From the NCBI GenBank assembly GCA_036172245.1, contig JAYWIR010000072.1:186001-250000 (forward strand): DNA of 64,000 nt. The letters run 5' to 3'. The translations under genes and the position numbers were made by a program. Positions 6,422 through 49,916 of the stretch are shown here, one piece after another. The notes under the pieces were generated by a model, which had not been told where the DNA came from, ran no database searches, and was given only the letters and a program-made list of their open reading frames with translations. Positions within the stretch are counted from its first letter, which is position 1. Each line of letters opens with the position of its first letter. Origin of the DNA: Raillietiella orientalis (Eukaryota).

Positions 6422-6447
6422 ATTAAGGAGATTCCCACTGTCCCTAC

Positions 6448-6490
<43 letters not shown>

Positions 6491-6638
6491 AATCAGCGGG
6501 TAAAGAAGACCCTGTTGAGCTTGACTCTAATCTGGCATTGTGAAGAGACATGAGAGGTGTAGCAGAAGTGGGAGGCGTTCCCGCTGGCAATCTCGGTTCG
6601 CGGCCGCGGTCCGCTCCCTTGCTCCTGCGGCGCGCCGC
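6404..6638 (+). rRNA. 28S rRNA fragment downstream of the R2 region
   Basis: AGTGACGCGCATGAATGGATTA..GAGATTCCCACTGTCCCTA..GAAAGAAGACCCTGTTGAGCTTGACTC-type conserved blocks; near-identical to 15948-16187. Confidence 0.9.
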
Positions 6639-10258: not shown

Positions 10259-10290
<32 letters not shown>

Positions 10291-10318
10291 CGCGATGGCC
10301 GTTGCCGGTGTTGACGCG

Positions 10319-10350
<32 letters not shown>

Positions 10351-10394
10351 AGTGGAGAGATTCAACCAAGCTCGAGTAAACGGCGGGAGTAACT
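9283..10394 (+). rRNA. 28S rRNA fragment (mid-gene up to helix 69)
   Basis: GGGATGAACCAAACG, GACAGCAGGACGGTGGCCATGGAAGTCGGAA, CCCTGAAAATGGATGGCGCT; 9545-10394 repeats 1-850. Confidence 0.95.
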
Positions 10395-15947: not shown

Positions 15948-15991
15948 AGTGACGCGCATGAATGGATTAAGGAGATTCCCACTGTCCCTAC

Positions 15992-16034
<43 letters not shown>

Positions 16035-16038
16035 AATC

Positions 16039-16073
<35 letters not shown>

Positions 16074-16824
16074 ATCTGGCATTGTGAAGAGACATGAGAG
16101 GTGTAGCAGAAGTGGGAGGCGTTCCCGCTGGCAATCTCGGTTCGCGGCCGCGTGTCCGCTCCCTCTCTTTGCCCGCGGCGCGCCGCCTCGTGGCGGGTAC
16201 CTAGCTGCTGCCGCTGGTCCGTCGAGCGTGGTCGGGTTCGCTTCGACGGCTCGGTCGTGAGCGCTTGGGGCGCGCAGGCGCGGCGTGGATTCTTTCCCCC
16301 CGGAGCGTCCGTCGTCCCGCGGCGGCTTGGGGGCGCCGCGTCGCCCGTTTCGGTCGGGATCGTCCAACAGTGTAATACCACTACTTTTATCGTTTCTTTA
16401 CTGACTCGGTGATGCGGAGAGCGAGCCGTGCTTCTCGTCGTCGCAATGACGACGGACCGGTTCTCGTTTCTCGAACCAAGCGCAGGTGCTGAGCACCCGA
16501 CCCGTTCGATCGTCGGGATTGCCCCACGCGCGCGTCCGCGATCCTCTCTCGTTCCGCGAGGAGGTGCGACCGCCTCGGGGTCCGGGGAGGCGCGATCCGC
16601 TTTGAGGACAGTGTCAGGTGGGGAGTTTGACTGGGGCGGTACATCCGTCAAAAGCTAACGCGGTTGTCCTAAGGCCGGCTTAGCGAGGACACAAACCTCG
16701 CGTAGAGCAGAAGGGCAAAAGCCGGCTTGATCCAGATTTTCAGTACGAATACGGACCGCGAAAGCGAGGCCTAACGATCTTTTTGACTTTGCGCGCAGAT
16801 CATGAGTTTTGAGCAAGATGTGTT

Positions 16825-27345: not shown

Positions 27346-27395
27346 TTACCACTACACACGAGCGAGTCAGGAGCCCGTGAGGAAGACGTCCGATT
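27346..27395 (-). mobile_element. 5' UTR stub of a Tx1-like beta element
   Basis: GAGCGAGTCAGGAGC...ACGTC matches the beta 5' UTR at 48878-48910. Confidence 0.7.
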
Positions 27396-27411
27396 GTCGG
27401 CACTCCTTTTA

Positions 27412-28742
27412 GACCCGGAAGCTCCGGGGCATTTATTTGGTAATGAAAACAAACAAGCAGGTGTAAGGCTATTGCTCCTACAGCGTTGAAAAAATGTTCT
27501 TATGAAAGCCCTCAACTCGCCGTGTAGCCAGCACGCAGACCGACGTGTTCGACTCGGCAGCGGAGAGGAAAGGACAAACGAAAACAAAAAGAAAACAATA
27601 TTTACAAAAGCAGCGAGGAGTTGGGGAAGGGATCACGTTCCGCTGACGTCGTCCTCTACATCCTTTCGAGCATGCCGGCAAGTTCAGTCCGCATACGTCC
27701 CAGATGGAAACTTCCGGCTGCCGTACTCAGGAAGCGCAGGTCAGAGGAGATGATATCCCAGTCGTTTGGTCCACCAGAGGCAGTGCTTCATGCCGCCACA
27801 ATTCCTCGTCGGCAGCAGAGGGCTGCAAGGGCTGCGGCAGGCGAAAGGGCGTCGCGCACAAAGAGGCGCTTCAAAACGTCTCTGGGTTTGATCGTGAGTG
27901 CTCCTAGGGCCGTTCCGAAACGCAAACATAGGAACCGGTGGGCAACACAGTCAAGAAGTAGGTGCGGGAGAGTTTCCCGTTCCCCGCATCTGTCACAATT
28001 TGGGTCCACAGCCCTCTTTCGTCCAGTAAGAACGGCGGGCGTTGCTGAGGAGTCCCCAGTGCAACACCAGGAATGCCGACACCTGCCTCTTCTGGGAAAG
28101 GGCCTGGGAAGTCTTCAGCACCGGGGGCCACTCGAGAGCATCGTTGGGGATGCTCAGCAGCTCCCCAAGCGCAATAATCCCTTCAATGGGACTCTTGGGG
28201 TCGCAGCGTCTGTCAACTTGCCCGTGGTCCAACCACCTTGCTCGCTCTTCCAGAGATACTGCACCTGACCTCTCATTTCGCCAGCTGGCTGCTGCTTAGG
28301 TGCTTCTTGAGGTGAAACAGACGTGGCAAGGGAGGTCCTTAAAGCTTACGCACCCAAAGTGAGCTGCACGTTGATTTCCTGCAGCGAGTAACCCTTGTGA
28401 TAGGAGTCCAACATCAGCTGCCGCAACTCCGGGCTCGATTGAACTCCCTCGATGTTCACGCCGCATCAGCGCAGAAAGCCTCAGTACCAGGGGGATGAGT
28501 TCCGCCGCGAAGCACTGGAAGAACTCCTCAGGCAGACCATTCTCACCGGGCGCCTTGCGCTTCTTGAAACCCGCTATGGCGGAAGAAACTTCTTCCGCCG
28601 TGAAGGGCAAGTCAAGAGTGGCGCTTTCCTCCTCGTCGACCGCAATGGAATCCGCCGGCAGAAGCAGCTCCGAGAGAATGCGTTCCGTCGACTCCCTAGC
28701 ATACAACAAGAATTAGAAGCGCCTTCGGAGGCAACGCACGGC
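27412..28742 (-). mobile_element. Tx1/L1-like beta-type element remnant with a large internal deletion and an intact 3' end
   Basis: KAPGENGLPEEFF (RT N-terminus) fused near 28440 to the C-terminal CDRCGERETLPHLLLDC region; AATAAA plus hairpin tail. Confidence 0.8.
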
Positions 28743-28827
28743 GGACGCAATTGTTGTCCGCTCCTTCAATAGGGAGTTTTTATATTCTGGTGTTCCGTGT
28801 GTGTTTCGCGGCCGTTGAAAGGCAGAA

Positions 28828-30441
28828 ATGCCTGTGAACGCCGCAGTTTCAGGTGAGAGAGGCGGGAAGACCGCGTCTCCCAAGCCAAAGGAGGTGGGAT
28901 CATGCCCCACCACTTCTTCTGAACCCGCCACTACGGCGAGGGCCTGGAGCGCGGTGGCAGCGGCGGAAACGCCCGATGTCGCCGCCAAAATCCAATCCTA
29001 CATCCAGGAGGGCTACAATCCGGCCCTCCTGTACAAGGTAGGCAATTTATATTCCCCGTTAAGGGCGCGAAAGTGCGGCAATGCCATCAAAAAGATGGGC
29101 ATTGCCGACCATGAAATTCTTTGCCTCTCTATACGGAGCGGAGGGCAGTTGGCGGAGCTCATCTGCAAGGATGCAGCTCTTACCCACAAGATGCTCTGCA
29201 CGCCCGTACAATTTGAGGGCAGGAATTTACTCCCACACACGGTGGACCACTCCATTGTGGTCCACCTAACAGGGACAACAGTGCGGATGGATGAGAACGC
29301 CATCCGCGCTGAACTGGAAAAATACGCAAGTGTTTCCGCGATGTGGAGAAAGCCAAACACCTTCGGAGTGAACGGTGCATTTAGTGGGCGAGTAGGCGCG
29401 CGCGTGACGCTTCGAGGAATCGTACAGCTTCCCCACAAGCTCCAAATTGGCGACGAGTTCGTCGACATTTGGTTTGTGGGGAAACCTAAATTTTGTGGAA
29501 ACTGTAAGTCGTTCGGGCATTTGAAAAAGCGGTGCCCGGACGCGGTTTGCCCAACGTGCGGCGCGAAGGGCCACACCAAAGTGGTGTGCCCGATGAACGT
29601 CGCTCCAACGCCGGAACTTCCGCAAAAGAAGGAAGGGAAGGCAAAAATAGTGATAAACCCCACAAAAGGGGATCAGCCGTCGGCTCCGACAAAAGTCGCG
29701 CAGCAGGAAAGGGACTCGGTACAGGAGCTCCCGGAAAAGACTGCCGACGAGGAAGGCTGGCAGCTGGTCACCCGTAAAGTAAAAATCGTTAAAAAAACCG
29801 CGCCCGCACCGGCGAAAGTGGTGAAGGGCAAGGGGAAGGTCGGGCCACGTCCAACAATCAAAGCGTGCAGCGTGGCCATCAAACGCGTGCCGGTGATCGA
29901 TACTCGCTCCGCTGACGGATCCATGCGACGTGACGTCACGCCAGCTGTTCAAGCCGCCGCCGCGCAAACGCCGACGCCGCGACAAAGTCGCGAGCCCAGC
30001 GTGAGCAGGGACGACCGGGACTTCAACAAGGCGGCGGAAGAGTTGGCAGCCATGCTCCAGCAGCCTCCCAAGGCCCAGAAGGAGGCCTTGAGGCGTCCGG
30101 CTGAGGCGAAAGGACCGGAGACTTCCGAGTCCGAAGCCGAAGCCGGCAACGCTCCGGCTGTCGCTCTCCCGAAGCGCAAAGCGGGCCGCAAGGTAGGCAA
30201 CCCGCGGCGCTCCGCACCTCCACCGGCGGAGGAGGACATGCGGTCGGACCACGACGACGGGGAGGCGATGTCCGCGAGGTCTCGCGACTCCTCGCCGGAG
30301 ACGTCCCTGGCCAAGCAGGATCCTCCAACCACCACCACAACCACCGACGGACCGCCTCCTTGCGAGCAACAGCCCGTCGCAATGGATACACAACTCCCGC
30401 CTGCTGAACAGCAGGCGGAGGACGGTAAGCAAGCACAATAA
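28828..30441 (+). CDS. ORF1p, Tx1-type (RRM-like domain, two CCHC zinc knuckles, disordered tail)
   Basis: 537 aa; CGNCKSFGHLKKRC and CPTCGAKGHTKVVC. Confidence 0.85.
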   Translation: MPVNAAVSGERGGKTASPKPKEVGSCPTTSSEPATTARAWSAVAAAETPDVAAKIQSYIQEGYNPALLYKVGNLYSPLRARKCGNAIKKMGIADHEILCLSIRSGGQLAELICKDAALTHKMLCTPVQFEGRNLLPHTVDHSIVVHLTGTTVRMDENAIRAELEKYASVSAMWRKPNTFGVNGAFSGRVGARVTLRGIVQLPHKLQIGDEFVDIWFVGKPKFCGNCKSFGHLKKRCPDAVCPTCGAKGHTKVVCPMNVAPTPELPQKKEGKAKIVINPTKGDQPSAPTKVAQQERDSVQELPEKTADEEGWQLVTRKVKIVKKTAPAPAKVVKGKGKVGPRPTIKACSVAIKRVPVIDTRSADGSMRRDVTPAVQAAAAQTPTPRQSREPSVSRDDRDFNKAAEELAAMLQQPPKAQKEALRRPAEAKGPETSESEAEAGNAPAVALPKRKAGRKVGNPRRSAPPPAEEDMRSDHDDGEAMSARSRDSSPETSLAKQDPPTTTTTTDGPPPCEQQPVAMDTQLPPAEQQAEDGKQAQ

Positions 30442-31333
30442 ACACACCAACGCGTGGACTCTCCTCCTGCCGGCGACTGCGCGTAATCTGTTGGAACGTC
30501 AACGGTTTGCGCGACGACGGCAAGAGGAGAGAAGTGGCCGCCAGCCTGCGGGACTTCGATCTGGCGCTTCTGCAGGAGACGCACGTTCTCCACGCAGATG
30601 AGGCCTAGGAAATCGAACGGATCGCAGGCGGGCGGCTCGTATACCAAAACGGGAGAGACCACACCCGCGGTGTGGCTTTCATGCTGAAGCCAGCCGTCGT
30701 TAATGCGCTGCGCGACGTGCACTTCGACGGGGAAGGTCAAATCGGGCAGCTTGTTGGCAAGAGGTCCGACGCGATCGACCTCGTCGTGACCAACGTGTTC
30801 GCGCCCGGCACGAGCCCACAGGCGCGGGGAACGCACTGCGTTCTTCGAAGGCCTGCGGCGAGATTGGCTGGCCGAAGCAGACATGCGAAAGGCGCACCTC
30901 ATTGCCGGGGACTTTACCGTCCTCCTGCTGGCAGGTGCGCCCGACATTCGCGCACAGCTGATCAACGAGATGTGCGCTGCCATGCACGCGCGCAACTTGT
31001 TGGCCGGTGACGCCGGGACGGAGACGAGGATCGACCACATGTTCCTCGACAACCACCTGTGTTCGCGGGTGGGAAATCGAGGGGCAGTGCCATCCGAACT
31101 TTCCGACCATCCCCAGCTGGCGCTAGAAATACAACCGCGCGGTAGAGGTCCACCCTCCACAGCGTGGCGTTTGCCAGGGGACTGGTTGCGCCTTGCAGGA
31201 GCAGCGCAACATCTTCGCTCGTTCCTGCAAGGCTTCCATCTGCAGTCGCTCGCGGACTGGGACGAATTGAAGAGCTCAGTCCGCGAGTTCTGCGACCAGT
31301 TTCCCCTGAACCGTCTCCCTCCAGGTTTCGGCG
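30441..31333 (+). pseudogene. ORF2 APE endonuclease domain of the host element, disrupted
   Basis: WNVNG, LQETH, IAGDF, IDH, SDH motifs; internal stop and frameshift. Confidence 0.85.
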
Positions 31334-31537
31334 TTGCCACCCGGGTACGCCCGGGGCGTTTATTGATAAACTTTACATGCGTGGTACAAGGCCCCACCAC
31401 GGCCGTAAACACAGGACCTGTCGGGACACTGGGACGCAGCCCGGCGGGGCACTCCCCGACAGCGAAGGGGGATAGGGATGAGACAAAAAGTAAAATAAAA
31501 AGAAACAAACAAAAAGAAGTTGGAGGGCAGGGAAGGG

Positions 31538-34500
31538 ATAACTGGTGGCTGTGGGGAGGGCCCATCCGTCGAACGAAGCCCTCGAGGTCAGCCTGCATAT
31601 TCCACAGTTGGGGCCATCCGGCAGCTCTTCGCAAGAAGCGTTTGGCATACGGGATGACATCCCTCGCCTGTGGACCCACTCCTTCGTTGTTGGCGTCGCT
31701 CCATGCCGCCACGATGCCACGGACGCAGCACAATGCTGCGATGGCTGCGGCTGGCTGCAGTGCGTCCTTCACGAAGAGGGGCCGAAGAACGTCTCTGGGG
31801 GTGCTGCCCGTAGGGAGCCCGAGGGTCGTCCCGAACAGTTCCCAAAGGGGTCGGAGGGCAGCACAATCCACAATAAGGTGGGGAAGCGACTCCCGCTCCC
31901 CGCACCTGGCACACGCAGGATCCACAGCTCCCCTCGTCCAGTGGAAGCGGCGCGCGTTGCAAGGTAGACCCCAGTGCAACAAAAGCAACGCCGACTCTTG
32001 CCACTTCAGGGGCAGGATCCTGGATTCTTTCATCACCGGGGGCCACTTCAGCTCATCCCTGGGGATGGCGAGCAGCTCGCCCCATCTTAATAATCCTCGC
32101 GGCTGGACGCTCGGGGTCGAGGCGTCGGCCAGTTCTCCTGTTGTCCAGCCGCTGATCAACTTCTCCTGTCCCTCGATGCAGCAGGAGACTTGCCACCTTG
32201 GCGTCCGGGTGCTGTGAAGTGCCCTCCTTAGGAAGGGTAGCGCCGTAGCTAGGCAGGTCGTCTCTGCCCACGTGCATCTTGCTGAACTCTCCAGGAGATT
32301 CCGCAGCGTGCAGCGGGCGTAGGGGCTGCATCGGAGACGATTCCACGTCTCGTGGCGTCTCTGGTTAACTACTGCCCACGTTCCAATATTCTCCTCCAGC
32401 CAGGCGGGGGAGTTGGCGGGGCAGCAAACCATCCAGCTGTTCTCCTCGGCCAATGTTGCCATGCGCCCGAGCAGTAGGCCGCATCTTCGCATCTTCCGGC
32501 CACGGCTCAGAAGAAAAGACGCGAGTCCATCGCACCGGGACACACGGCTGGCCAGGAGGCGGGCCGGAGTGCACCAAGGGGTGCTCCACATCTTCGCTGC
32601 GATCGCGAGGGTTGCCACCGCAGCTGCTTCTCCACGCGCTCCAGCGTCAGGAGGCCAAGACCGCCGTCCCGACGCGGAGCGCACAAGTCCTTCAGTGGGA
32701 CTCGGGGCCTCCCCTTGCTCCAAAGGGCGATACGGAGGAGGTCCTTCGTCCTCTTCTTGGATTCCACGGTGGGGGGGCAAACAAAAAGCAAGGGGCGGAG
32801 GATGGGGGCCGCGTAGGCGTTCCAAACCGCGGCCCGTTCCGTCAAGTAAAACTTGCCTTCCAGGAACGGGCCGATTGCCGTCTCGACTTTTTGGAGGCCG
32901 CTGGACCACGCTTCCGCAGGGGAGTAGTCCCCCAACGGCACACCAAGGTACTTGAAGCACCTCGCCGTGGGGATCCCCAGGCGGACCCAGTCCTGCTGCC
33001 CTGCCCACGCCGCACCTATTGGCACAACCGACGACTTCGCCCTGTTAACCTGCAGTCCGGTCCCGCGGCTGAGCAGATCGAAGAAGTCTCCGACCGCCTT
33101 TCCCGGGGTGGACATTGGCAACAAAAGCAGAAGATCGTCGGCGTACGCTGCTACGGCGGGCGTGCCGGGGCACGAGCTCGGCAATGGGGCCAAAGTCACC
33201 CTGTACGCTCTCAGCACCAACTCAAAGTAGGTGCTGAAGAGCAGGGGGCTGAGGCTATCTCCCTGCCTTATGCCCCGCCGCACCGGCACGCCATACACCT
33301 TTTGACCGCTGAAAGAGACGGTAATTATCGCATTCTGCCAGCAAGAGCGCAGGTAGGAAATCAGGGAGGGTGGAAAGCCCATGCGACCCAGGAGCTCCAA
33401 GAGAAGTTCCTGGTCTACACAGTCGAACGCCTTGTGGAGATCGACTGCGAGCGCTAGGGCCCCCTTCCCCGCCCGGAGGTCCCTTCCCAGCCCGGCTGGC
33501 GGCCCCAATGTTGGGTTGCCGACTTTCCCTATCCCTTTCTTCTCTCTTCTCTGCAGGTGCACCCATGTGCTTGCGAAGAAGAGGTTGGCATCCATACTTC
33601 GCCCGGGAACAGCATAAGTCAGCTCCGGGCTAATTACGGATTCTGCCACCTGTCCCAGACGCGAAGCCCATAGCCCTGCGATCAACTTGGCGTCCGTATT
33701 CACGATCGTGATCGGACGCCAGTTCTTTAAATCCCTGAGGTCTCCCCCTTTCGGCAGGAGCCTCACTCTGGCTGACCGAAACGAGGCGGGAACATCGCGT
33801 TCGTCTCGGATCAGCCTGATCAACTTAAGCAGCAGGGGTGCCAGCTCTTCCGCGAAGCTCTGAAAGAACTCCGCGGGCAAGCCGTCTTCCCCTGGAGCTT
33901 TACGCCTCTTGAGCCTTTTGATACCGGCGAGAATTTCGCCGGTGGTAAAGGCTCGTCGAGGCTTTCCATCTCCTCCTCCCCTATTGCCGGGGCGCCATCC
34001 GGAAGCAAGCGCCGAGAGGCGTTTCGATCCGGGGGCTGCCTGGCGTAAAGGGAGGAATAGAAACTCCGCACGAGATGCCGTACCGACGCCGGGGACGAAC
34101 ATTCCCGGCCCTGGTAGTCCAGCAAGCTGGCCGACCCGGATTGCCAGGCTTGGCGTTCGGCCCCGGCGCGGTACTCGGCCAGGCGACGGACATTAGGGGT
34201 TCTCTCGTACCTACGAGCCTGTAAATAGGCCCGATGGTTGCGAGCACCCTCGCTGAATCCACGGGGCAGGCGATCCAGGGGGAACTGCTCACAGAACTCG
34301 CGGACCGATTCCTTAAAAAGGTCCCAGTCCTGGAGATTCCAGAGCGTGACACCTCTCAGGTATTCGCGAAGGTATTCCTTCGCACCTGAGAGTCGCGTTC
34401 AGTCCCCCGGCAGACGCCAATCCCTGGATGGCGGTCCCTTGTCACGAGGCCGCATCTCGAAAATTGACCGGGAATGGTCCGACAACGTCGACCCAACCCT

Positions 34501-35133
34501 CCCCCGTTTGCCGACCCGTGAACACAGGTCAGCGTCGAGGAAGACGTGGTCGATGCTGCGGACCATTCCCCTCTCACCCGCGAACAAGTTGCGCGCACGC
34601 ATGGCGGCGCACAACTCGTTCATCGCGTTCTCTTGGGTTTCTGGCTCACCTGTTAGCAGACGGAGATTGAAATCTCCCGCTATCAGGTGAGCCTTCCGCA
34701 CGTTCGTGTCCGCCAGCCAGTCGCGCTTCAGGGAATCCAGCAGCCTGGTACGGTCGCTGTATCCCTGTTTACTGCTGGGGGCGTACACATTCGTGACGAT
34801 CAATTCGATCGAGTCGGACCAGCTGAGAATCAGCTGACCGACCCGACCGTCGTCATCGAAGCGCACGCCCTTCACGGCCGCGTCGATGGCCGGCTTCACG
34901 AAGAACGCGACCCCGCAGGTGTTGCGGAGGCCGCACCGTCAATACAGCCGACCCCCCGCGATCGTCTCGATCTCCTGGGCGTCTGCCGCGGTGATCACGT
35001 GGATCTCCTGCAGCAGGGCCAGGTCGAGCTCACGCAGGGTGTCGGCTGTATCTCGCCTGTTGCCGTCGTCGCGCAGCCCGTTGACGTTCCAACAGGCGGC
35101 GCGAATCCGACGGCGACTGGCGAGCCCAGGTGT
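31538..35133 (-). pseudogene. alpha-1 ORF2 (APE-RT-CCHC), frameshifted
   Basis: Fragments 34399-34899, 32507-34102 and the C-terminal part within the 29949-33008 frame. Confidence 0.85.
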
Positions 35134-36887
35134 TATTCCTGGGAAGATGGCGATGCGGCGTCCGCCACCCGTTGGGGCGGGACGCTAGGTGGAGGAGGAG
35201 GGTCAGGCGCTGCGTGCACCTGGTCCCCCTCCTCCATGGGTAACGGCGCGTCGAGGGGGTCACCCTTAGGTGGGGTCGCGCCTACCTGTTGGCCCTCCTC
35301 CATGGGGGCGGGCTGTTCAGGCTCGGCGACTGCAGGGAGGACTTCGCCCCCCTGCTCACCCTCCTCCATGGGGGTGGCCGGCTCGACGGCTTCCGAGCGT
35401 GGGAGTCCCCCCTCCGGGATTCCCACGCCACCGCTACCTTCCTGCTTCTCCTCCTCGCTGGTGGAGGGGAGGCGCCTCCTGGGTTTCTGGGACTTGCGTC
35501 CCGACTTCCTGGGGGGTGCCTCCGAGGAAGAGGATGCACTTCCGGCCCCCAGGTCCGACTCACCTGTGGGGGCCTTTTTCGCGGGAGCCGGCCTTCGCAC
35601 GGCCTTGCGTGAGGGGTTCTCACGCTCGGCCAGCGTGGCCGCGAGCTCCTCCGCCGCCTTTGCGAACGCGGCGTCCGCAGTGTCGACCGGCGCGTCGCGC
35701 GGCTCACCCTCTGTGTAAACAGAGGGTTCGCCGTCGCGAACCTCGGGCGCGGCGGAAACGGCGAGGGAAGGCTCGTCGCCCCGGGTGGCAATCTCGGGAA
35801 CGGCTATGCGCTCCAGTGCTACCGTACACTCCCGCATGGTCTTAGAGCGCGGCCCAGGTTTTTTCGCCTTGCCGGCTGTCTTTTTTACCGCTTTCGCGGG
35901 TTCCGCGGGGGGCACCTTTTTCTCCTTCCTGGCCTTGACCAGCTGCCAGCCGTCTTGGACTCCCGCGTCTTCGGAGGGTTTTTCTTCCGACGCCTGTGTG
36001 GGAGGAACAGGGGCTAGCGGCTGCTGCCGGCCAGGATCTCTTTTTGGTCTTTCGACCAGTTTACTGCGTTTTGCCTGTGCTTTTTTTGCAGCAGGCGGCA
36101 CCGGAGTGGGGCGTTTAGGGCATACGCGGCGTACGTGGCCCTTCTCCCCGCATAAGTGGCACACAATGTTCGGGCACCGCTTGCGCAAGTGTCCTACTGC
36201 ATTGCAGTAGGCACAAAAGCGGGGTTTCCCCACGTAGCAGAGGTCTACGACTTCGCCATTGACCTCTAGTTTGTGGGGAAGCCCACTCTCCTTCACCGTC
36301 ACGCGCGCGGCGGCCTGCCCTCCGAAAAGGCTATCGTAGCCATCGAAGATTGTGGCCTTTGGCCAAAGCGCGTGAACATCTCCGTGCTTTCTTAACTGAT
36401 CACCAACCGCAGACCGCGTCATGCGGCTGGTGATCCCTGTCAGATGGACCACTACGGAGCGGTCCATCGTGACTGGTAGGATCTTGCGTCCGTCCACGTT
36501 CAGCGGGGTGGTTATCAAGCTTTGCGCCAAGGTGATGTCCTTGCAGACAACCTCAACGCGCTGACCCCCGCTTAGCACGGATAGACCGTCAAGGTCCTTT
36601 TCCAACACGTTGGCGTTCTGCAGCGCTTTCGAAAAAGCGCGTGCAGTTCGCCCGTCAAAGAGATTGCCTACCTGGTAAACCAAGCTGGGCTTGTACCCAG
36701 CTGCCCGGTAGGCCGCCATCTCGGCCATGGTTTCCGCGATCGGCGCGGCCACCATGGCGCTCCAGCTCCTCGCCTTGAGCGGCGAGGGCGATTCCGGGGC
36801 GGACGCCCCTGATTCTGTAGGCTGTGGGGGTGGGCAAGCCTCCCCCACACCTACCTCCATCGTGGTGTCCTCAGGCATCGCTGCCAT
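35133..36887 (-). CDS. alpha-1 ORF1p (two CCHC knuckles)
   Basis: Open frame from MAAMPEDT; CAYCNAVGHLRKRC and CHLCGEKGHVRRVC. Confidence 0.85.
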   Translation of the reverse strand: MAAMPEDTTMEVGVGEACPPPQPTESGASAPESPSPLKARSWSAMVAAPIAETMAEMAAYRAAGYKPSLVYQVGNLFDGRTARAFSKALQNANVLEKDLDGLSVLSGGQRVEVVCKDITLAQSLITTPLNVDGRKILPVTMDRSVVVHLTGITSRMTRSAVGDQLRKHGDVHALWPKATIFDGYDSLFGGQAAARVTVKESGLPHKLEVNGEVVDLCYVGKPRFCAYCNAVGHLRKRCPNIVCHLCGEKGHVRRVCPKRPTPVPPAAKKAQAKRSKLVERPKRDPGRQQPLAPVPPTQASEEKPSEDAGVQDGWQLVKARKEKKVPPAEPAKAVKKTAGKAKKPGPRSKTMRECTVALERIAVPEIATRGDEPSLAVSAAPEVRDGEPSVYTEGEPRDAPVDTADAAFAKAAEELAATLAERENPSRKAVRRPAPAKKAPTGESDLGAGSASSSSEAPPRKSGRKSQKPRRRLPSTSEEEKQEGSGGVGIPEGGLPRSEAVEPATPMEEGEQGGEVLPAVAEPEQPAPMEEGQQVGATPPKGDPLDAPLPMEEGDQVHAAPDPPPPPSVPPQRVADAASPSSQE

Positions 36888-36967
36888 CGGACACCAACGA
36901 TGTTCCACACTGAACAACACAACAAAAAACCGCTTCCTGTCAACTCACTCGGGAGCGAAGGAAACAC

Positions 36968-37002
36968 ACGTCCACTCGCCAAGGGTTTCGGCGAAGGGCT
37001 GA
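36968..37002 (-). promoter_or_regulatory. Putative Inr (host-derived) + DPE (element-derived) promoter of alpha-1
   Basis: Minus strand TCA(+1,37000)GCC and GGACGT starting at 36973 (= +28). Confidence 0.5.
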
Positions 37003-39731: not shown

Positions 39732-39991
39732 AGGACCTCTCCACGCGCACCGTGATCCCTTCCCCGCCCTCCCACCTCTACAACATTTGTTCCATCCCAC
39801 ATTTGAACTTTTTGTTTCTTTTTGTTTTTCTTTATTTCCCATCCCCGCGCATCGGAAGGACCTCTCCGGCACGGAGCCAATAACCAGCAAGCTGTTTTAA
39901 AGTGGTGAACCTTCGGGTTCGCCACGCGACATTGTTCTGTAATTTTATTTCTATGAAATAAATGCCCCGGCACATCCGGGTGTGAACAACC

Positions 39992-41370
39992 CGCCGCCGC
40001 GCGCACGCCGACGCCGCGACAAAGTCGCGAGCCCAGAGTGAGCAGCGACGACCGGGACTTCAACAAGGCGGCGGAAGAGTTGGCAGCCATGCTCCAACAA
40101 CCTCCCAAGGCCGAGAAGATGGCCTTGAGGCGTCCGGCTGAGGCGAAAGGACCGGAGACTTCCGAGTCCGAAGCCGAATCCGGCAACTCTCCGGCTGTCG
40201 CTCTCCCGAAGCGCAAAGCGGGCCGCAAGGTAGGCAACCCGCGGCACTCCACACCTCCACCGGCGGAGGAGAAAATGCGGTCGGACCACGACGACGGGGA
40301 GGCGATGTCCGCGAGGTCTCACGACTCCTCGACGGAGACGTCCCTGGCCAAGCAGGATCCTCCAACCACCACCTCAACCACCGACGGACCGCCTCCTTGC
40401 GAGCAACAGTCCTTCGCAATGGATACACAACTCCCGCCTGCTGAACAGCAGGCGAAGGACGGTATGCAAACACCATAAACCCACCAACGCGTGGACTCTC
40501 CTCCTGCCGGCGACTGCGCGTAATCTGTTGGAACGTCAACGGGTTGCGCGACGACGGCAAGAGGAGAGAAGTGGCCGCCAGCCTGCGGGACTTCGATCTG
40601 GCGCTTCTGCAGGAGACGCGCGTAATCCACGCAGGGGAGGCCCAGGAAATCGAACGGATCGCAGGCGAGCGGCTGGTATACCGAAACGGGAGAGACCGCA
40701 CCCGCGGTGTGGCTTTTGATGGTGAAGCCAGCCGTCGTTAACGCTCTGCGCGAGGTGCACTTCGACGGGGATGGTCAAATTGGGCAGTTTGTTGCCAAGT
40801 GGTCCGACGCTATCGAACTCGTCGTGAGCAACGTGTAGGCGCCCGGTACGAGCCACAGGCGCGAGGAACGCACTGCGTTCTTCGCAGGCCTGCGGCGAGA
40901 TTGGCTGGCCGAAGCTGACATGCGAAAGGCGCACCTCATTGCCGGGGACTTTAACGTCCGCCTGCTGGCAGGTGCGCCCGACATTCGCGTACAGCTGGTG
41001 AACGAGTTGTGCGCTGCCATGCACGCGCGCAACTTGTTGGCCGGTGACGCCGGGACGGAGACGAGGATCGACCACATGTTCCTCGACAACCACCTGTGTT
41101 CGCGGGTGGGAATTTGAGGGGCAGTGCCATCCGAACTTTCCGACCATCCCCGGCTGGCGCTAGAAATACACCCGCGCGGTAGAGGTCCACGTTCCACAGC
41201 GTGGCGTTTGCCAGGGGACTGGTTGCGCCTCGCAGGAGCAGCGCAACATCTTCGCTCGTTCCTGCAAGGCTTCCATCTGCAGTCGCTCGCGGTCTGGGAC
41301 GACTTGAAGAGCTCAGTCCGCGAGTTCTGCGACTAGTTTCCCCTGAACCGTCTCCTTCCAGGTTTCGGCG
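39992..41370 (+). mobile_element. Second host (gamma) copy, 5'-truncated, ending at the GFG site
   Basis: Near-identical to ~29953-31333; ends GGTTTCGGCG (41361-41370); continuation appears at 63925. Confidence 0.85.
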
Positions 41371-43870
41371 TTGTCACCCGGGTACGCCCTGGGCGTTTAT
41401 TTGTAAACTCTACATGCGTGGTACGAGGCCCCACCACGGCCGTAAACACAGGACCTGTCGGGACACCAGGACGCAGCCCGGCGTGGCACTCCCCGACAGC
41501 GAAGGAAGATGGGGATAAAACCAAAAGAAAAATAAAAAGAAACAAACAAAAAGAAGCTGGAGGGCAGGGAAGGGATCACTGGTCGCTGTGGGGAGGGCCC
41601 ATCCGTCGAACGAAGCCCTTGCGGTCTGTCTGCATATTCCCCATTTGGGGCCATCTGGCAGCTTTCCGCAAGAAGCGTTGGGCATACGGGATGACATCCC
41701 TTGCGTGTTGACCCACTCCTTCCTTGTTGGTGTCGCTCCATGCCGCCACGATGCCTCGGACGCAGCACAAGGCTGCAAGGTCTGCGGCTGGCTGCAGGGC
41801 GTCCTTCACGAAGAGGCGCCGAAGAACGTCTCTAAAGGAACTGCCCGTAGGGAGAGAGAGGATCGTCCCAAACCGTTCCCAAAGGGAACGAAGGGCAGCA
41901 CAGTCCACAATGAGGTGGGAGAGCGATTCCCGCTCTCCGCACCTGACACACGCAGGACCCACAACTCCTCTCGTCCAGTGAGAGCGGCGTGCGTTGCAGG
42001 GTAAACCCCAATGCAACAACAGCAACGCCGACTCTTTTGACCTAAGGGGCAGGATCCTGGATTACTGAAGAAGCGGGGGCCTCTTCAGCGCATCCATAAA
42101 GATGGCCAGCAGCTCGCCCCGTCTTAATAATCCTCGCGGCTGGACGCTCGGGGTCGTGGCGTCGGCCAGTTCTCCTGTTGTCCAGCCGCTAATCAACTTC
42201 TCACGTCCCTCGATGCAGCAGGAGCCTTGCCACCTTAGCGTCCGGCTGCTCTTAAGTGCCCTCCTCAGGAAGCGCAGCGCCATAGTTAGGCAGGTCGTCT
42301 CTGCCCACGTGGATCTTGGTGGATTCTACAGGAGATTCTGCAGCGTGCAGCGGGCGTAGGAGCTGCATCGGAGACGATTCCACGTTTCGTGGCTCCTCTG
42401 GTTAACCGCTGCCCACGTTCCAATATTCTCCCTTAGCCAGGCGGGGGAGTTGGCGGGGCGGCAAACCATCCAGCTGTCCTCCTTGGTTAATGTTGCCATG
42501 CGCCCGAGCAGTAGGCCGCATCTTCGCATCTTCCGGCCACGGCTCAGAAGAAAAGACGCGAGTCCATCGCACCGGGACACACAACTAGCCAGGAGGCGGG
42601 CCGGAGTGCACCAAGGGGTGCTCCACATCTTCGCTGCGATGGCGAACCCTCGCCGCAGCTGCTACTCCACGCGCTCCAGCGTCAGGAATCCAAGACCGCC
42701 GTCCCGATGCGGAGCTCACAAGTCTTTCAGAGGGACTCCGGGCCTCCCCTTGCCCCAAAGGGCGATACGGAGGAGGTCCTTTGTCGTCTTCTTCGATTCC
42801 ACGGTGGAGGGGCAAACAAAAAGCAAGGGGTGGAGGATGGGGGCCGCGAAGGCTTTCCAAACCGCGGCCCGTTGCGGCAAGTGAAACCTGCCTTCCAGGA
42901 ACGGGCCGATCGCCGTCTCGACTTTCTGGAGGCAGCTGGACCACGCTTCCGCAGGGGAGTAGTCCCCCAACGGCACACCAAGGTACTTGAAGCACCTCGC
43001 CGTGGGGATCCCCAGACGGACCCAGTCCTGCTGCCCTGCCCACGCCGCACCTATTGGCACAACCGACGACTTCGCCCTGTTAACCTGCAGTCCGGTCCCG
43101 CGGCTGAGCAGATCGAAGAATTCTCCGAATGCCTTTGCCGGGGTGGACATTGGCAACAAGAGCAGAAGATCGTCTGCGTACGCTGCTACGGCGGGCGTGC
43201 CAGGGCACGAGCTCGGCAATGGGGCCAAAGTCACCCTGTGCGCTCTCAGCATCAGCTCAAAGTACGTGCTCAAGAGCAGGGGGCTGAGGCTATCTCCCTG
43301 CCTTATGCCCCGCCGCACCGGCACGCCATACACCTTGTGTCCACTGAAAGAGACGGTAATCATCGCATTCCGCCAGCAAGAGCGCAGGTAGGAAATCAGG
43401 GAGAGTGGGAAGCTTATGCGACCCAGGAGCTCCAAGAGGAGTTCCTGGTCTACACAGTCGAACGCCTTGTGGAGATCGACTGCGAACGCTAGGGCGCCCT
43501 TTCCCGCCCGGGGGTCCCTTCCGAGCCCGGCTGGCGGCCTTAAGGTGGGGTTGCCGACTTTACCTAACCCTTTCTTTTCTCTTCTCTGCAGGTGCGCTCA
43601 TGTGCTTGCGAGGAAGAGGTTGGCATCCATACTTCGCCCGGGAACAGCATAAGTCTGCTCCGGGCTAATTACGGATTGTGCCACCTGCCCCAGACGCGAA
43701 GCCCATAGCCCTGCTATCAACTTGGCATCCGTATTCACGATCGTGATCGGACGCGAGTTCTTTAAATCCCTGAGGTCTCCCCCTTTCGGAAGGAGGCTCA
43801 CCCTGGCTGACGGAAACGAGGCGGAAACATCGCCTTCGTCTCGGATCAGCCTGATCAACTTAAGCAGCAG

Positions 43871-46800
43871 ATGTGCCCAAGAGGCGCTTTAAAACGTCTC
43901 TGGGAGCGTGCAAGGGTGCACCAACGGCAGTTGCAAAGCGCAACCACAGGGGCCGGAGGGCAACAGAGTCAACGAGCACGTGCGGGAGAGTTTCTCGTTC
44001 CCCGCACCTGACACAGTTTGGGTCCACAACCCTCCTCGTCCAATGAGAGCGGCGGGCGTTGCTGGGGAGTCCCCAGTGCAACACCAGGAACACCGACTCC
44101 TGCCACTTTAGGGGGAGGGCCCGAGTATTCCTCAGCACTTGGGGCCACTCGAGTGCATCCCGCGGGATGCACAGCAGCTCGCCCCAGCGCAACAGTCCTC
44201 TCGGTGGGGAACTGGGGATCGCGGCATCAGCAAGCTGACCCGTGGTCCAACCATCTTGTTCTTTCTCAGTGTCCCTGATCGTACACCGGACCTCCCACAT
44301 GGCCGGCTGGCTACTGCCCAGATGTTCCTTGAGGTGGGACAGAGCTGTGGCAAGGGAGGTCCTCTCAGCCCACGCACTCAAGGCGGGCTGCACGATGATG
44401 TCCTGCAGCGAGCGGCTCTTATGATAGGAGTGCAGCATTCGCTGCCGCAACTCCGGGCTCGCTTCCTCGATCTGGGCCCACGTGCGAAGGCTTTCCTGCA
44501 ACCAGGAAGTGCCCTTCGCGGGCCGGCAGGAGATCCAGGTGTTCTTCCTGGTCAGCTTCGCCACTCGCCGAAGAGTTGGTCCGCAGTGGAACAGGTACCG
44601 GCGTTTGCGGCGCGCTAGGAAGGTAGACAGTCCCGCGCAGCCGCCGACTCGCTGAACCAGGCATCGTGTAGGCTCGCACCAGCTGGCTCTCCACAACTTC
44701 GCCACTAGGGCGATTGTTCGGAACTGCAGCTGCAGTTCGAGGCTCTCCAGCGTGAGGAGGCTAAGGCCCCCATTGCGACGTGGGGCGCACAAGTCCTTCC
44801 AACACGCGCGGGGCCTTCCTCTGCCCCAGATGGCGATTCTGAGGAGGTCCTTTGTACGTGTTCTCACACCCCGGGGTGGGGGACAAACAAAAAGCAAGGA
44901 GCGAAACAGGGGGGCCACGAAAGTGTTCCACAGCACGGCCCGTTCCGGCAAGAAGAACTTGCCATCCAGGAACGGGCCGATCGCTCTCTCGGCCTTTTGG
45001 AGGCAGCAAGACCATTGTTCCGCTGGGGAGTAGTCCCCCAACGGCACACCGAGGTACTTGAGGTACCGTACCGCGGGGATCCCCAGGGGAGACCAGTCTA
45101 GCTGCCCTGCCCACGAGGAACCGACTGCAACAACGGACGACTTTGCTCTGTTCACCTCCAGTCCTGTCCCGCGACGCAGCAGCTCGAAAAAATTTTCGAC
45201 CGCCGACGCCGGGTTGGACATGGGGAGCAGCAGCAGAAGTTCGTCCGCATACGCCGCCAAGGCCGGTGTACCTGGGCACACGCGCAACAGGCGACCAAGA
45301 GTCTCCCTGAATGCCCTCAGCACCAACTCGACGTAGGTGCTGAAGAGCAAGGGGCTCAAGCTATCACCCTGCCGTATCCCGCGGCGCACCGGCACACCGA
45401 ACACGTTCCTTCCCCTGAAAGAAATGTTGGTCAGCGCGTCGCGCCAGCAAGAGCGCAGAAAGGCCAATAAGAAGGCCGGGAAGCCCAAGCGCCTCAGAAG
45501 CTCCAGCAGGAGCTCCTGGTCGACACTGTCGAATGCATTCCGCAAATCGATAGCGACCGCGAGGGCCCCTTCTTTCTCCCGCCTATCCCGCGAACCACCA
45601 GCGGACGTCCCGCAAATCGGGCTGCCGTCCTTGTTCCCTCCATTCATTCTGGTTCTTTGAAGTTCGAACCAGGTGTTCGCGAAGAGCACGTTGGCGTCCA
45701 TGCTTCGCCCGGGAACAGCGTAGGTCTGCTCCGGGCTGATGAAGCTTTCCGCCACCCGCCCCATTCGCTCCGACCATAGCTTCGCAACCAGCTTGTCGTC
45801 CGCGTTCAGTACGGTAATCGGACGTTAATTGCTGAGGTTCCGTAAGTCTCCTCCTTTCGGTAGGAGACGCATACGTGCCGATCGGAAGGAGGCGGGAACG
45901 TATCCTGTCTCCCGGATCAGCAGCGTTAGCCGCGGCACCAGGGGAGCCAGCTCCGCCGCGAAGCACTGAAAAAACTCCGCGGGCAGGCCGTCTTCCCCCG
46001 GTGACTTCCGCCTTTTGAGCTTCCCGATTGCGGTGATGATTTCACCCATCGTGAAAGGCTCGTCCAGGCGTACTCTCTCTTCTTCCCCGATCGCCGAGGC
46101 ACCGTCCGGAAGCAAAAATTGGGAAAATTCCCGGTCCGGAGGCACCCTGGTGTACAGGGAAGAATAATAGCCGTGCACTAGGCTACTCACCTCTGCCGGG
46201 GCCAAGTGCTCTTGGCCTTCGTCGTCCAGCAGGCTGGGCGACCCCGATTGCCAGGCCTGCCGCTCGGCCCCGGCTTTAAATTCCGCCAGTCTTCGGACGT
46301 CTGGTGTTCGGGAGTAACGACGTGCCTGCAGGTAAGCCCTATCCTTTCGAACACATTCTCGAAATCCTTTCGGGAGACGGTCCATGGGGAACTGTTGACA
46401 AAACTCTCGCACCGAGACTTTCAAATCGTCCCAGTCGTCGAGCGTCTGCAGGCTGAAACCTCGCAGGAACGCGCGGTGTTCCGCTGCGCCTGGCTTGGTC
46501 AGCCAGTCCCCCGGTAGACGCCACGCCTGCGCAGGGGGCCCCCTGTCGCGCAAGCGAATGACGAGTTCCACACGGGAGTGGTCGGAGACTGCGGACTGTA
46601 TCTTACCTCGCCTGCCCACGCGACAGCGCAGGTGATCGTCGAGGAAGACGTGGTCCACGCCCCGTTCCATCCCGGTATCCCCGGCTAACAAGTTGGATGC
46701 GTGCACTGCAGCGCACATCTCGTTAACCGGGGTGGCCTCTGTCCTCGCCGCACCTGATAGCAGGCGAATACTAAAATCGCCGGCTATCAGGTGCGCTGTG

Positions 46801-48913
46801 CGCGCGCCTACCTCCGACAGCCAGTCGGGCTTGAACGCACGGAAAAACGCCGTCCGTGCCACGCGCGCGTGACCGCCGCACGGCGCGTACACGTTCGTGA
46901 CGACGAGATTGATGGAGTCGGACCACCTGAAGGTGATTTGCCCGACCCGACCTGCCTCATCGAAACGAACTTTCCGCACCGCGCGTTGTAAGGCAGGCTT
47001 CAGAAGGAAAGCGACCCCGCGCGTACGGCGGTGGCCGCATCGCCACATAAGCTGACCTCCTGCTATCCGTTCGATCTCCCGCGCATGTTCTGCGGAGATC
47101 TCATGGATCTCCTGCAGCAGCACGAGGTCGAAGGCTTGCAAGGTGGCAGCTATGTCTCGTCTCCTGCCGTCATCGCAAAGCCCGTTGACGTTCCAGCTGG
47201 CGATGCGTATTTGACGGCAGGTGGCGAGTCCCGGCATTACTGCTGTGAAAGTGATGCTGCGTCTCCCGCCTCACCTAGGGGCGGGACGCCGGCTTTCTCC
47301 TGTGCGGTGGGGGGCGGCTCGACGACCCCCTCCGTCTCCATCGGCTCCGTCTCGACCGATCGTGGGAATTCAGGACTCGTGTCCATCTCTCCCACGCTCC
47401 CCGCACCCTCGTTTCCGGAGGATTCCCCTTCCTCGGAGGAGACGATCCTCCTCGGGTGACGGATTTTCCTTCCGGTCTTCCTCGGGGGTGCAGATGCGGA
47501 TGGTGCGTGTCCGGTCTCCGGGTCCGAGTCCGAGGTCCCGGTCCCCCTCCTCTCGGCCAGACGTCGAACGGCCTTCTTCCCGACATTTGCGGGAGGCTGC
47601 TGACTGGCGGCGAGCTCGGCGGCGGCTTTTGCAAAGCCCGCGTCATCGCGGCTCTCCCCCTCGCCGCAGCCCTCGGACGCTGTTTGCACAGCGACGGGGC
47701 TGTCAGCGTTGTTGCACACGGCAACGTCCTGTTCGCACGGCACTTCGGCGTCTGCAAGGCGCTCCAGTGCGACCGTGCATTTTTTCAGTCCCTGCTTTTT
47801 CGCGGGTTTCGCGGTTTTTGCAGGGAATTTATTTTTATTATTTACGTCCTTTTTTTCTTTCTTTTTCATTGGACAGACCTTTTGCCAGCCAGGCTCTTCT
47901 CCTTCCACCTCGGTTGCCTGCGTTTTTGCAGACGGGGTGGTCGAGATGACCTTTTTGGCTGGCTCCGGGTCGACCGTATTTTCAGACGGCGGCCTGGTCT
48001 TGTCAGGCTTCTTGCTCGCGTTCGTGCCGCTCACGGCAGAAGCCGGCGCGCGCGAAGTCTTTTTGGGGCACACTTCTTCCGTGTGCCCGATTGCCTCGCA
48101 CTTGCGGCAGGTGATGTTGGGGCAGCGTTTCTTCACGTGCCCCGTACCATTACAAAACGCACAGTATTTGGGTTTCCCCAGATACCAGATGTCGACAGAA
48201 TCTCCGTCGACTACTAGTTTATGGGGAACCCCAATGTCCTTATTCACAGTCACAGGTGCCGCGGCGAGCCCGCTCAGGAGTCCGTCATAAGTACGGAACC
48301 TGTTGGGCTTCAGCCACAGCGCGTGTACGGTGCCGAATTTGCTGAGTTCAGCCCTAACGGCGCTCGGTGACATCCGCACGGTGATTCCACGGAGGTGAGC
48401 AACTATTGAGTTGTCCACCGGGACAGAGAAGATCTGGCGGCCCTCGACCCTGACGGGGGTTCGCAGCAGTATTTGCGCCAACCATGCTTCTTTGCAGGTG
48501 AACTCGACATGCTGTCCCCCGCTGCGGATGTAGAGACCCAGCAGATCCTCCTTGTTAACGTTCAAACGGTGGAGCTCCTTCTCGAAGGAGCGCGCCACAC
48601 GGTCATCAAACACCCGGCCTACCTTATACGGCAGACTCGGGTTGTAGTTGTAGGCCTTGTAGGCCTGAGCCTCGGCGATGGCCGCTGCAGATGGCGCGGC
48701 GACCGCGGCGCTGTAGTCCCTCGCCGGCGCGGGGGACGAAGCTTTCGGGGAAGGTGCCCCTATCTCCATGGGTACGGGGGACGTTCGCCGGGCCCCCACC
48801 CCACATTCACTAGTAGCGGGATCAGGCATCTCTGCCATCCCCCGACCACTGATGCACCGCACTACACCAATAAAGTCGAGCGAGTCAGGAGCGCGCAGAG
48901 AACACGTCTGACC
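43871..48913 (-). mobile_element. Tx1-like beta element, 3' end lost
   Basis: ORF1, APE (45825-47237), RT with YADE and C-terminal CCHC (43860-45764). Confidence 0.88.
47237..48838 (-). CDS. beta ORF1p
   Basis: From MAEMPDP; CAFCNGTGHVKKRC and CRKCEAIGHTEEVC; TAATG overlap with ORF2. Confidence 0.82.
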   Translation of the reverse strand: MAEMPDPATSECGVGARRTSPVPMEIGAPSPKASSPAPARDYSAAVAAPSAAAIAEAQAYKAYNYNPSLPYKVGRVFDDRVARSFEKELHRLNVNKEDLLGLYIRSGGQHVEFTCKEAWLAQILLRTPVRVEGRQIFSVPVDNSIVAHLRGITVRMSPSAVRAELSKFGTVHALWLKPNRFRTYDGLLSGLAAAPVTVNKDIGVPHKLVVDGDSVDIWYLGKPKYCAFCNGTGHVKKRCPNITCRKCEAIGHTEEVCPKKTSRAPASAVSGTNASKKPDKTRPPSENTVDPEPAKKVISTTPSAKTQATEVEGEEPGWQKVCPMKKKEKKDVNNKNKFPAKTAKPAKKQGLKKCTVALERLADAEVPCEQDVAVCNNADSPVAVQTASEGCGEGESRDDAGFAKAAAELAASQQPPANVGKKAVRRLAERRGTGTSDSDPETGHAPSASAPPRKTGRKIRHPRRIVSSEEGESSGNEGAGSVGEMDTSPEFPRSVETEPMETEGVVEPPPTAQEKAGVPPLGEAGDAASLSQQ

Positions 48914-49571
48914 GTCGGCAATGCTGGTGTTGCATTGGGGGCTTCCTTGCAACGCCCGCCGACACCACTGGACGCGGGGGGGTGTCAACCCTAATTGTGT
49001 CAGGTCCGGGGAGAGGGATACTTTCCCCACCTGTTAGTGGATTCTGTTGCCCTCCGTCCCTTGTGGGAATGCTTTGCCGCAGCCCTGGGGATCCCCGGGG
49101 GCAACTCCAGAGACGCTTTGCGCCCCCTCTTAGTCCGTAACGCCCTGCCTCCAGCGGCCTCGCTTTCAGCCCTGTGCTGCCTACGCGGGATCGTCGTGGC
49201 ATGGAGCAAAGCGACGGGAGGATCCAGCGACAGGGATGCCAACGTGTATGCGGCCCGTTTCCTCAGGATGGCAACGCGATGGCCCCATCTGGAACCACAC
49301 ACGCAGAAACAGCTTGCCGGCATCCTCCAGAGGATGACGGACCCTCCCAGCAGACTGTGATCCCTTCCCGCTCCCTCCCTGATTTTTGTTTTCTTTTTGT
49401 TTTCTTTTTGTTTCGTTCCCTCTCCCCTCTGCTGCCGAGGTCGACCGCGCCACTCTGCGCACCGGTAGCCCGGCAAACTAGATCTTTCCAGAGCGTGGTT
49501 GGACCACTGGTCCAGTTACAGATTGTATAGGTTTATTCGTGAGAATAAACGTCCCGGCGCACCAGGGTTTC
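48914..49571 (+). mobile_element. 3' end of a Tx1-like epsilon element
   Basis: SAMLVLHWGLPCNARR..FPHLLVDS..ALCCLRGIV, pyrimidine-rich UTR, AATAAACGTCCCGGCGCACCAGGG. Confidence 0.8.
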
Positions 49572-49916
49572 AATGGAGATTCCGGAGCGTGACGCCTCTC
49601 AGGTATTCGCGAAGGTGTTCCTTCGCACCTGAGAGTCGCGTCCAGTCCCCCGGCAGACGCCAATCCCTGGATGGCGGTCCTTTTTCGCGAGGCCGCATCT
49701 CGAAAATTAGCCGGGAATGGTCCGACAACGTCGACGCAACCCTCCCCGGTTTGCCGACGCGTGAACACAGGTCAGTGTCAAGGAAGACGTGGTCGATGCT
49801 GCGGACCATTCCCCTCTTACCCGAGAACAAGTTGCGCGCACGCATGGCGGCGCCCAACTCGTTCATCGCGTTCACTTGTGTTTCCAGCTCACCTGTTAGC
49901 AGGCGGAAATTGAAAT

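Follow-up and report, generated by a model that had tools for sequence, protein, structure and literature searches.

A LINE subfamily of Raillietiella orientalis that inserts preferentially at one ORF2 site of its sisters and spares its own

Where does a long interspersed element (LINE) insert when it lands among its own relatives? The question is raised by 64,000 nt of Raillietiella orientalis contig JAYWIR010000072.1 (positions 186,001 to 250,000; assembly of 210 Mb), hereafter the window. Its left 27 kb hold pieces of 28S ribosomal RNA (rRNA) genes and elements of the restriction-like endonuclease (RLE) type, and from 27.4 kb onward it is piled up with related LINEs that have a CCHC ORF1 and an APE-RT ORF2 (open reading frames 1 and 2). 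An earlier reading of these letters, here the original prediction, named two of the subfamilies alpha and beta and proposed that beta targets a conserved ORF2 site of the family. The comparison of sequences shows that beta inserts in sister LINEs, mostly those that we call gamma with a few others, whereas its own form of the site, TT(C/T)CT, is not used. We consider it very probable that beta, an APE LINE with a preference for certain sequences, parasitises its sisters by target-primed reverse transcription. Codon numbers follow the frame of the window's beta ORF2 (47270-43863), and subfamily names other than alpha and beta were coined in this analysis.

The ORF2 site of beta

Junction and site patterns were searched in the genome together with reversed-pattern controls, which gave 0 matches. 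The exact tail pattern yielded 55 loci, all of which were examined; 13 proved to be something other than beta and were set aside, 11 because they belong to a sister that inserts near the ORF2 end and 2 being others. Genome-wide, 21 of the 42 remaining tails lie at codon ~1062, or in tandem over it, and 21 have other flanks. This share exceeds the >20% of flanks by which a LINE is called target-specific in the available text of PMC4494074, as does that of the older lineage. On-site tails make up 12/13 of the young lineage and 9/29 of the older one, in which four tails were assigned from 49-76 nt of tail only. The head pattern found 40 heads, and among the 35 examined, 33 intact 5' ends are on target (28 at SALL/VLHW and 5 head-to-tail, the latter from 2 events) and 2 are in unrelated sequence, a distribution that is not due to chance. 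In a separate set of 40 head matches, the first 30 gave 26, 2 and 2. Beta tails are spread over many contigs. In a tree of ORF2 sequences beta is one clade of 42 rows (Shimodaira-Hasegawa-like approximate likelihood ratio test, SH-aLRT, 96) with both window types inside, which upholds its status as a separate subfamily. It has an ORF2 site of its own, used antisense.

The bases found at occupied sites differ from those that beta carries itself. Allowing one mismatch, TGCT is present at 31/32 occupied sites as compared with 33/100 empty sites, the latter counted by hand in the first 100 listed of 510 that match the family pattern. All 21 exact occupied sites read TGCT. The nick (^) falls after TGCT on the host coding strand (TGCT^NG), and the insert is therefore antisense. 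Empty sites of the form TGCT^NG number 21, of which 18 are gamma-type, while those of the form T(A/C/T)CT^NG number 75 and are mostly beta's own (Fisher p 7e-12 for occupied versus empty, TGCT versus T(A/C/T)CT); roughly one in two ideal gamma sites is occupied. With a wider pattern we obtained 27 occupied junctions, comprising 23 with TGCT, 4 with gamma-type TTCT/TCCT and 0 of beta's own form. In nearly all rows the beta ORF2 has Phe at this place, encoded by TTC or TTT and followed by CTG; TGCT is absent in 41/42. Beyond the nick, G occupies +2 in 8/8 truncated on-target copies versus 3/33 TGCT empties among the first 100 listed, again a hand count. The proposal that insertion stays inside the family's own coding sequence is thus borne out for sister ORF2 and fails for the ORF2 of beta itself.

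The 21 off-target flanks have only a TGCT core of 4-6 bp in common, with T at -4 in 16/21, G at -3 in 14/21, C at -2 in 12/21 and T at -1 in 19/21. We have good confidence that a TGCT^GG core is what the endonuclease would read. At one further locus (L088, contig C32 near 1771560), tandem beta insertions occupy a second TGCT, located ~50 nt upstream of the main one within this part of ORF2.

Several observations weigh against this account. TTCT or TCCT stands at 4/27 occupied junctions (~2 events), so TGCT is not absolute, and the occupied-site pattern holds no bases beyond the nick, the NG having been read from loci with both flanks. Specificity of the older lineage is loose, with 20/29 tails elsewhere, and young-lineage insertions lie mostly within one host subfamily and include a duplicated pair (L067/L143). 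Finally, a single codon may have produced self-avoidance by accident, and as targets the beta copies are younger than those of gamma. A choice of non-self as a selected trait would be one way to interpret the data.

Could a single old nested insertion have been multiplied, either by segmental duplication or by movement of a beta-in-gamma composite? Young loci do have their host subfamily in common, and in many cases the adjoining outer junctions too; true duplicates exist (L067/L143, L031-L033 and L029/L030), and insert distances correlate with right-flank distances (rho ~0.6). However, among 10 young loci in gamma hosts the inserts differ by 2-3% and the hosts, twice as divergent, by ~5-6% to the left and to the right, the divergence changing in a step at either junction. 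In a host tree, from which 4/29 rows were left out as too divergent or too short, 11 occupied hosts are intermixed with 14 empty gamma copies such that 7 changes are needed, and a single clade of occupied hosts is rejected (approximately unbiased test, p-AU 7.9e-5). This tree is star-like, with 1/21 inner branches starred, which counts against leaning on it. Moreover, the same young beta is found in two unrelated hosts and at one off-target, non-family site (L069, L070, L136), and eight older truncated copies have duplications and truncation points of their own. On the divergence and clade tests, segmental duplication was rejected as the origin of these loci and is very unlikely; judged by these alignments, beta insertions are independent rather than one copied event. 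Divergence steps of 2.8, 5.8 and 7.7% (beta, gamma and gamma's host) fit nested ages, and an outer insert at 14.7% breaks that order and may be misaligned; neither was used as evidence.

Window junctions and the anatomy of insertion

The features of the window on which the junctions depend are as follows.

27348..27395, minus strand: stub of a beta 5' head, from a copy of the older lineage, matching the L199 head from ~27348; its left side joins a 5'-truncated RLE element
27396..27407, plus strand: target copy of 12 nt that separates two tandem beta copies, a gamma-type variant with TCCT; length taken from duplications elsewhere
27408..27437, minus strand: beta 3' terminus with AATAAA, a GC-rich hairpin and a short fixed purine tail without a poly(A) run
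27408..28706, minus strand: older-lineage beta 3' fragment (ORF2 end, internal deletion), 78% identical to the copy whose head ends at 48913; it is L031 in the beta clade
43863..47270, minus strand: young beta copy, ORF2 with APE and RT (Pfam PF03372, PF00078), one internal stop near 45826 and the 3' end lost at ~43862
44071..44097, minus strand: site in beta itself that is homologous to the target (SVFLVLHW), with TTCCT instead of CTGCT, unoccupied
46554..47216, minus strand: APE endonuclease domain, lacking ~20 residues in the hairpin region, which lies between GDF and xDH
47240..48838, minus strand: ORF1 of the young beta copy, with two CCHC-type knuckles in translation
48903..48909, minus strand: AGACGTG, a putative downstream promoter element (DPE)-like motif, 4 nt inside the head
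48914..48925, plus strand: right-hand 12-nt target copy
48914..48936, minus strand: predicted 23-nt target-derived leader, with the putative +1 at 48936 in host LHW codons read antisense
48914..49572, plus strand: gamma host copy, 3' part, with the zinc-finger end of ORF2, the 3' untranslated region (UTR) and the tail
49576..49917, minus strand: alpha-type ORF2 codons 165-277, hosting the gamma copy; 93% to 34331-34673

Both junctions lie where the original prediction had placed them. The head of the young copy ends at 48913 and is followed on the plus strand by GTCGGCAATGCT GGTGTTGCATTGGGG (SAMLVLHWG); this target sequence continues for ~650 nt as the ORF2 end and 3' UTR of another subfamily. 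At 27396-27411, GTCGGCACTCCTTTTA is flanked by the beta head stub and the beta tail hairpin. The tandem junction seen here is real and represents a single event with 3 genomic occurrences (L031-L033, 96-98% identical, with the same RLE neighbour). These 16 nt had been taken as a target copy in full; they consist of 12 duplicated bases (27396-27407) and TTTA of the element's fixed tail, as loci whose flanks are unrelated likewise have TT(T/C)AC ahead of the hairpin. The accompanying caveat, that the 16-mer might be a constant part of the beta terminus, is true of its last 4 nt, and at full-length 5' ends 12-24 nt of target are often carried from a donor. Its companion, that other beta copies might have random flanks, is likewise true in part, given the 21/42 tails with other flanks. 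The window alone cannot show a target duplication because neither of its beta copies has both ends, and the duplication was shown at other loci.

RLE homology at 27131-27349 adjoins the beta head stub. In the window (27131-27395) and at L032 and L033, a 5'-truncated RLE element is fused directly to the 48-nt stub, and the remainder of that beta copy was not found on the stub's other side in this structure, which occurs 3 times. At 43829-43862, the young beta without its 3' end is followed by short filler and then by a 5'-truncated alpha-type copy in the same orientation. A Pfam search at 1e-3 gave no hit for the young beta ORF1; sister ORF1s give zf-CCHC.

A full-length beta measures 5.5 kb, with host ORF2 resuming on both sides. 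Where a copy is 5'-truncated, its target duplication is peculiar to the locus and in most cases 12 bp long (range ~11-16). Such duplications were found at 8 on-target loci (L084, L086, L090, L092, L093, L096, L100 and L107) and 7 off-target loci (L074, L083, L089, L094, L110, L136 and L150). Against this stand many loci without a detectable duplication, partly because their other end is interrupted or outside the examined sequence. The tail is constant, with TT(T/C)AC and the hairpin and a fixed 3-4 nt after AATAAA and hairpin. L083 and L094, where the primer end is not T, carry 4 tail bases, and most T-ending targets have 3, in a comparison of few cases with L150 ambiguous. Long 3' read-through annealing as the main guide is not favoured, since the tail length at L083 and L094 fits a defined end with 1-nt microhomology. 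Beta thus inserts after TGCT in TGCT^NG, duplicates ~12 bp and lies antisense in sister ORF2, probably by target-primed reverse transcription. The end of the young beta 3' UTR (L061:2900-2970) folds well (z -4.0), and the older copy in the window has z 0.

In its strict form, with a 16-bp target, self-targeting and invariably antisense insertion, the original prediction fits the window junctions at face value and is scarcely credible on the genome as a whole, given the 12-bp duplication, the constant tail, the unused own site, half of the tails elsewhere and a sister subfamily that inserts in sense. The antisense rule holds for beta and is not clade-wide, with the codon-164 subfamily as the exception.

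Narrowing of the site and a proposed 5' leader

In the 36.6 kb of family sequence in the window, TGCTNG occurs at 73 sites, 44 of them on the other strand, and a 10-bp site motif that is unique within these 36.6 kb occurs 1229 times in the genome. As the core is this frequent and even the 10-bp version is common, more than a short motif must select the site. A TGCT^GG motif combined with a regional preference, such as LINE-rich chromatin, or with better survival there is rather improbable as the full explanation. It is consistent with off-target flanks that share only 4-6 bp, with the many copies in dense LINE piles, and with the uniqueness of the 10-bp motif in 36.6 kb if that motif is the one preferred. 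Against it stand 21 in-family insertions at one codon, with 3/21 off-target flanks having a family match, despite 73 TGCTNG sites. Most likely, longer protein-DNA contacts together with leader-assisted completion narrow the 6-bp core to one site.

Donor target carried at the 5' end bears on the second of these. The right target copy is unlike the left in 9/14 full-length young loci (8/13 events), and all 9 have G at position 7. L065, L069 and L070 have one target-copy variant and one head variant in common despite three host kinds. A carried flank of 21-24 nt is present in L173, L195, L069 and L070; L173, inserted at an unrelated site, brought 21 nt that resemble the target along with it, and L195 has a degenerate 23-nt target copy ahead of the host's own. 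At L172, L189 and L191 an 11-nt remnant was carried. By analogy with R2, we think it likely that the RNA would start in the target upstream of the head and that this leader would anneal to homologous target, completing full-length copies. In the available text of PMC6795142, R2 RNA likewise starts in upstream target (9-36 nt), which correlates with 5' junction structure. R2 differs in being an RLE element of 28S ribosomal DNA (rDNA) with a ribozyme that cuts itself from a co-transcript, whereas beta has a DPE-like motif. Leader-assisted completion would explain why 33/35 heads and 9/29 older tails are on target, a comparison confounded by a different lineage mix.

Where would such an RNA start? 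The YA dinucleotide considered here belongs to the initiator consensus, and (A/G)GACGTG is found near the 5' end in all head types found. CGTG lies at ~+25 to +32 from the start in LINE promoters and near the 5' end of the DPE-promoter LINEs jockey, Doc, G, I, F, SART1, TRAS1 and L1Tc, as in beta (PMC4748587, as far as its text is available). Unlike these, beta has only 7 nt of head upstream of CGTG, and the start would therefore fall in the target. With the motif set at +28, the predicted +1 falls on CCA in the host LHW codons, which is 23 nt upstream of where the beta head begins. The predicted leader length matches the length carried, which supports a composite promoter, the head contributing the DPE and the target the start site. 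Only on-target copies would then stay transcribed, their start site coming from the target. Counting against it, an initiator-like YA is at the exact spacing in ~6/11 head types, a count made after the idea was formed; that of the gamma head is off by 2, and some alpha heads have none. We put the composite promoter forward tentatively, at a little under an even chance. Rfam gave no ribozyme match in the beta head, whose fold has z -1.0. The heads of RLE elements inserted in 28S also have GGACGTG, with CCA in the 28S flank at equal spacing (hand count).

A leader of this kind might choose the site as well as complete the copy. The 23-nt leader would pair with the nicked strand from -12 to +11 and bring a loose, hairpin-less endonuclease to it, so that a new leader means a new target. 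The leader does span the nick, the hairpin is absent across aligned subfamilies though their sites differ, and the 10-bp motif, at 1229 genomic occurrences versus ~40-50 family sites, cannot yield 50% on target. In addition, non-gamma hosts occur in 2/4 variant-leader copies versus 0/17 others (post hoc, p 0.03), and specificity is looser in the lineage whose leader is accreted and degenerate. Yet the leaders of L065, L069 and L070 read GGCT and were inserted after TGCT, which argues that the core is not set by the leader, and second-strand annealing alone accounts for leader carry-over. Duplex invasion by a 5' leader is not known for APE LINEs, which also counts against RNA-guided choice; we regard it as unlikely. 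We are equally doubtful of its extension, in which the target address would be kept in the RNA, with the head DPE and target start giving a ~23-nt leader that guides the hairpin-less endonuclease and captured leaders giving a cyclic non-self network.

Endonuclease, sister subfamilies and known systems

Beta APE matches PF03372 (E 3e-11) and its RT matches PF00078; zf-RVT is found in a sister ORF2 (E 1e-5, just under the cut-off), with a C-x2-C..H motif in beta. The GDF-to-xDH distance is 41 residues in 36/38 clade rows (43 and 74 in the other two), compared with a median of 62 in 78 homologues. By alignment, the ~20 missing residues would correspond to the betaB6-betaB5 hairpin region, the hairpin (T192-S202) that the available text of PMC1950540 describes in human L1 endonuclease; the specificity hairpin of L1, Tx1L, R1Bm and TRAS1 is thus lacking in beta. 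A structure model of the L064 copy, whose open ORF2 frame runs to 1199 codons, has a 12-residue loop at this place (predicted local distance difference test, pLDDT, 55-75). Its best fold match is human L1 endonuclease (1vyb; template modelling score, TM, ~0.8), with which beta shares fold and catalytic motifs. The remaining 8-residue linker differs among subfamilies. With the loop that usually probes the target absent, a long protein read-out is harder to picture, which speaks against our interpretation. The comparison of hairpin-loop residues between alpha and beta, suggested earlier as a check, cannot be made as proposed because the segment is deleted in all aligned subfamilies.

Beta shares with the L1/Tx1 group an APE-containing ORF2, RT with zinc finger, a CCHC ORF1, target duplication and 5' truncation, and lacks the variable poly(A) tail of L1 sensu stricto. 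Protein matches include no named Tx1 and many plant L1, at <=32% identity apart from one unnamed match at 63%. We liken beta to Tx1 and Zepp by behaviour, not by clade. The unnamed JGI metagenome proteins P0001 (63%) and P0090 (48%) were the only close relatives found, and the clade may exist in other sequence sets; none of the relatives in metagenome contigs was confirmed.

The sisters use other ORF2 sites, as had been predicted, at codons ~75, 164, 279, 306, 582 and ~1142. We gathered 166 tail junctions around beta, in which counts for other subfamilies are biased and partly duplicated, and most of 54 singleton tail junctions have no mapped site. The 3' UTR clusters correspond to antisense sites at 1062 for beta, 279 for gamma, 306 for alpha, 582 for epsilon, ~1142 for zeta and 75 for eta (one mapped), and delta inserts in sense at codon 164. 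In the tree that has beta as one clade, built from ORF2 ends of 67/102 candidate rows and labelled from the 3' UTR clusters, six of seven labels are single clades; gamma rows are absent because their uninterrupted stretch is too short. Gamma has alpha-type hosts, while its own sequence at codon 279 is different. Copies of gamma and beta are themselves interrupted by alpha, and one alpha-like copy has an own site that resembles its targets, so non-self choice is shown for beta alone.

Three further observations concern these subfamilies. Delta is inserted in sense where GDFN, a catalytic motif, is encoded (~164), and its hosts there are of several kinds (window 49936; L078, L087 and L131). A subfamily that shares beta's terminal hairpin stands after a GTGAT-like sequence near the ORF2 end (~1142) at L103, L111, L113, L115 and L129, with further loci at L133, L134, L135 and L147. 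A host cycle is possible, with beta in gamma, gamma in alpha-type copies and alpha in beta and gamma (L061, L063, L064, L073, L076, L078 and window 49572).

Site-specific LINEs are known for rDNA, small nuclear RNA genes, microsatellites, telomeres and DNA or LTR (long terminal repeat) transposons. We found no published case of LINEs that target sister LINE ORF2 codons in the literature within reach of our search, which left most subscription papers and Repbase Reports outside. The closest behaviour is that of Tx1-clade LINEs in other transposons, with Tx1 in Tx1D, the crocodilian Tx1-Mar in Mariner-N4_AMi, Tx1-8_Crp and Tx1-4_AMi in LTR elements and Tx1-9_AMi in Harbinger (available text of PMC4494074). 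As that text describes for these, beta is an APE LINE of partial specificity that prefers one position and one orientation within a mobile element of another kind or subfamily, with tandem copies round one target copy and sister families with different sites in one target. It differs in that the target is the conserved ORF2 of sister subfamilies of the same clade, which in turn target a further sister each, with beta's own copy a spared variant. Zepp and ZeppL, L1 LINEs of green algae, resemble beta in nesting into existing copies and in GC-rich clusters (PMC3446292, PMC8226300). In the portions of these two papers at hand, Zepp nests with tandem 3' ends and one cluster per chromosome, and base-level subfamily sites or non-self choice are not described, whereas beta is dispersed.

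That beta would knock out sister ORF2 at one conserved codon while sparing its own copy points to competition among LINEs and offers a base-level account of how self-renewing nested LINE piles grow. The clade has at least 6 natural specificities on an endonuclease without the loop thought to probe the target, which makes other determinants of APE specificity directly testable and is relevant to tools for targeted gene insertion.

At the left of the window, 1-6638 and 9545-16186 form a tandem duplication of rDNA and RLE element that is 99% identical. The RLE-type elements (R2-like, with zinc finger) at 954-6400 and 10398-15945 sit in 28S rDNA antisense to the rRNA. Their junctions with 28S lie at 6400, 10397 and ~15945, where Rfam model positions ~2348-2389 are absent.

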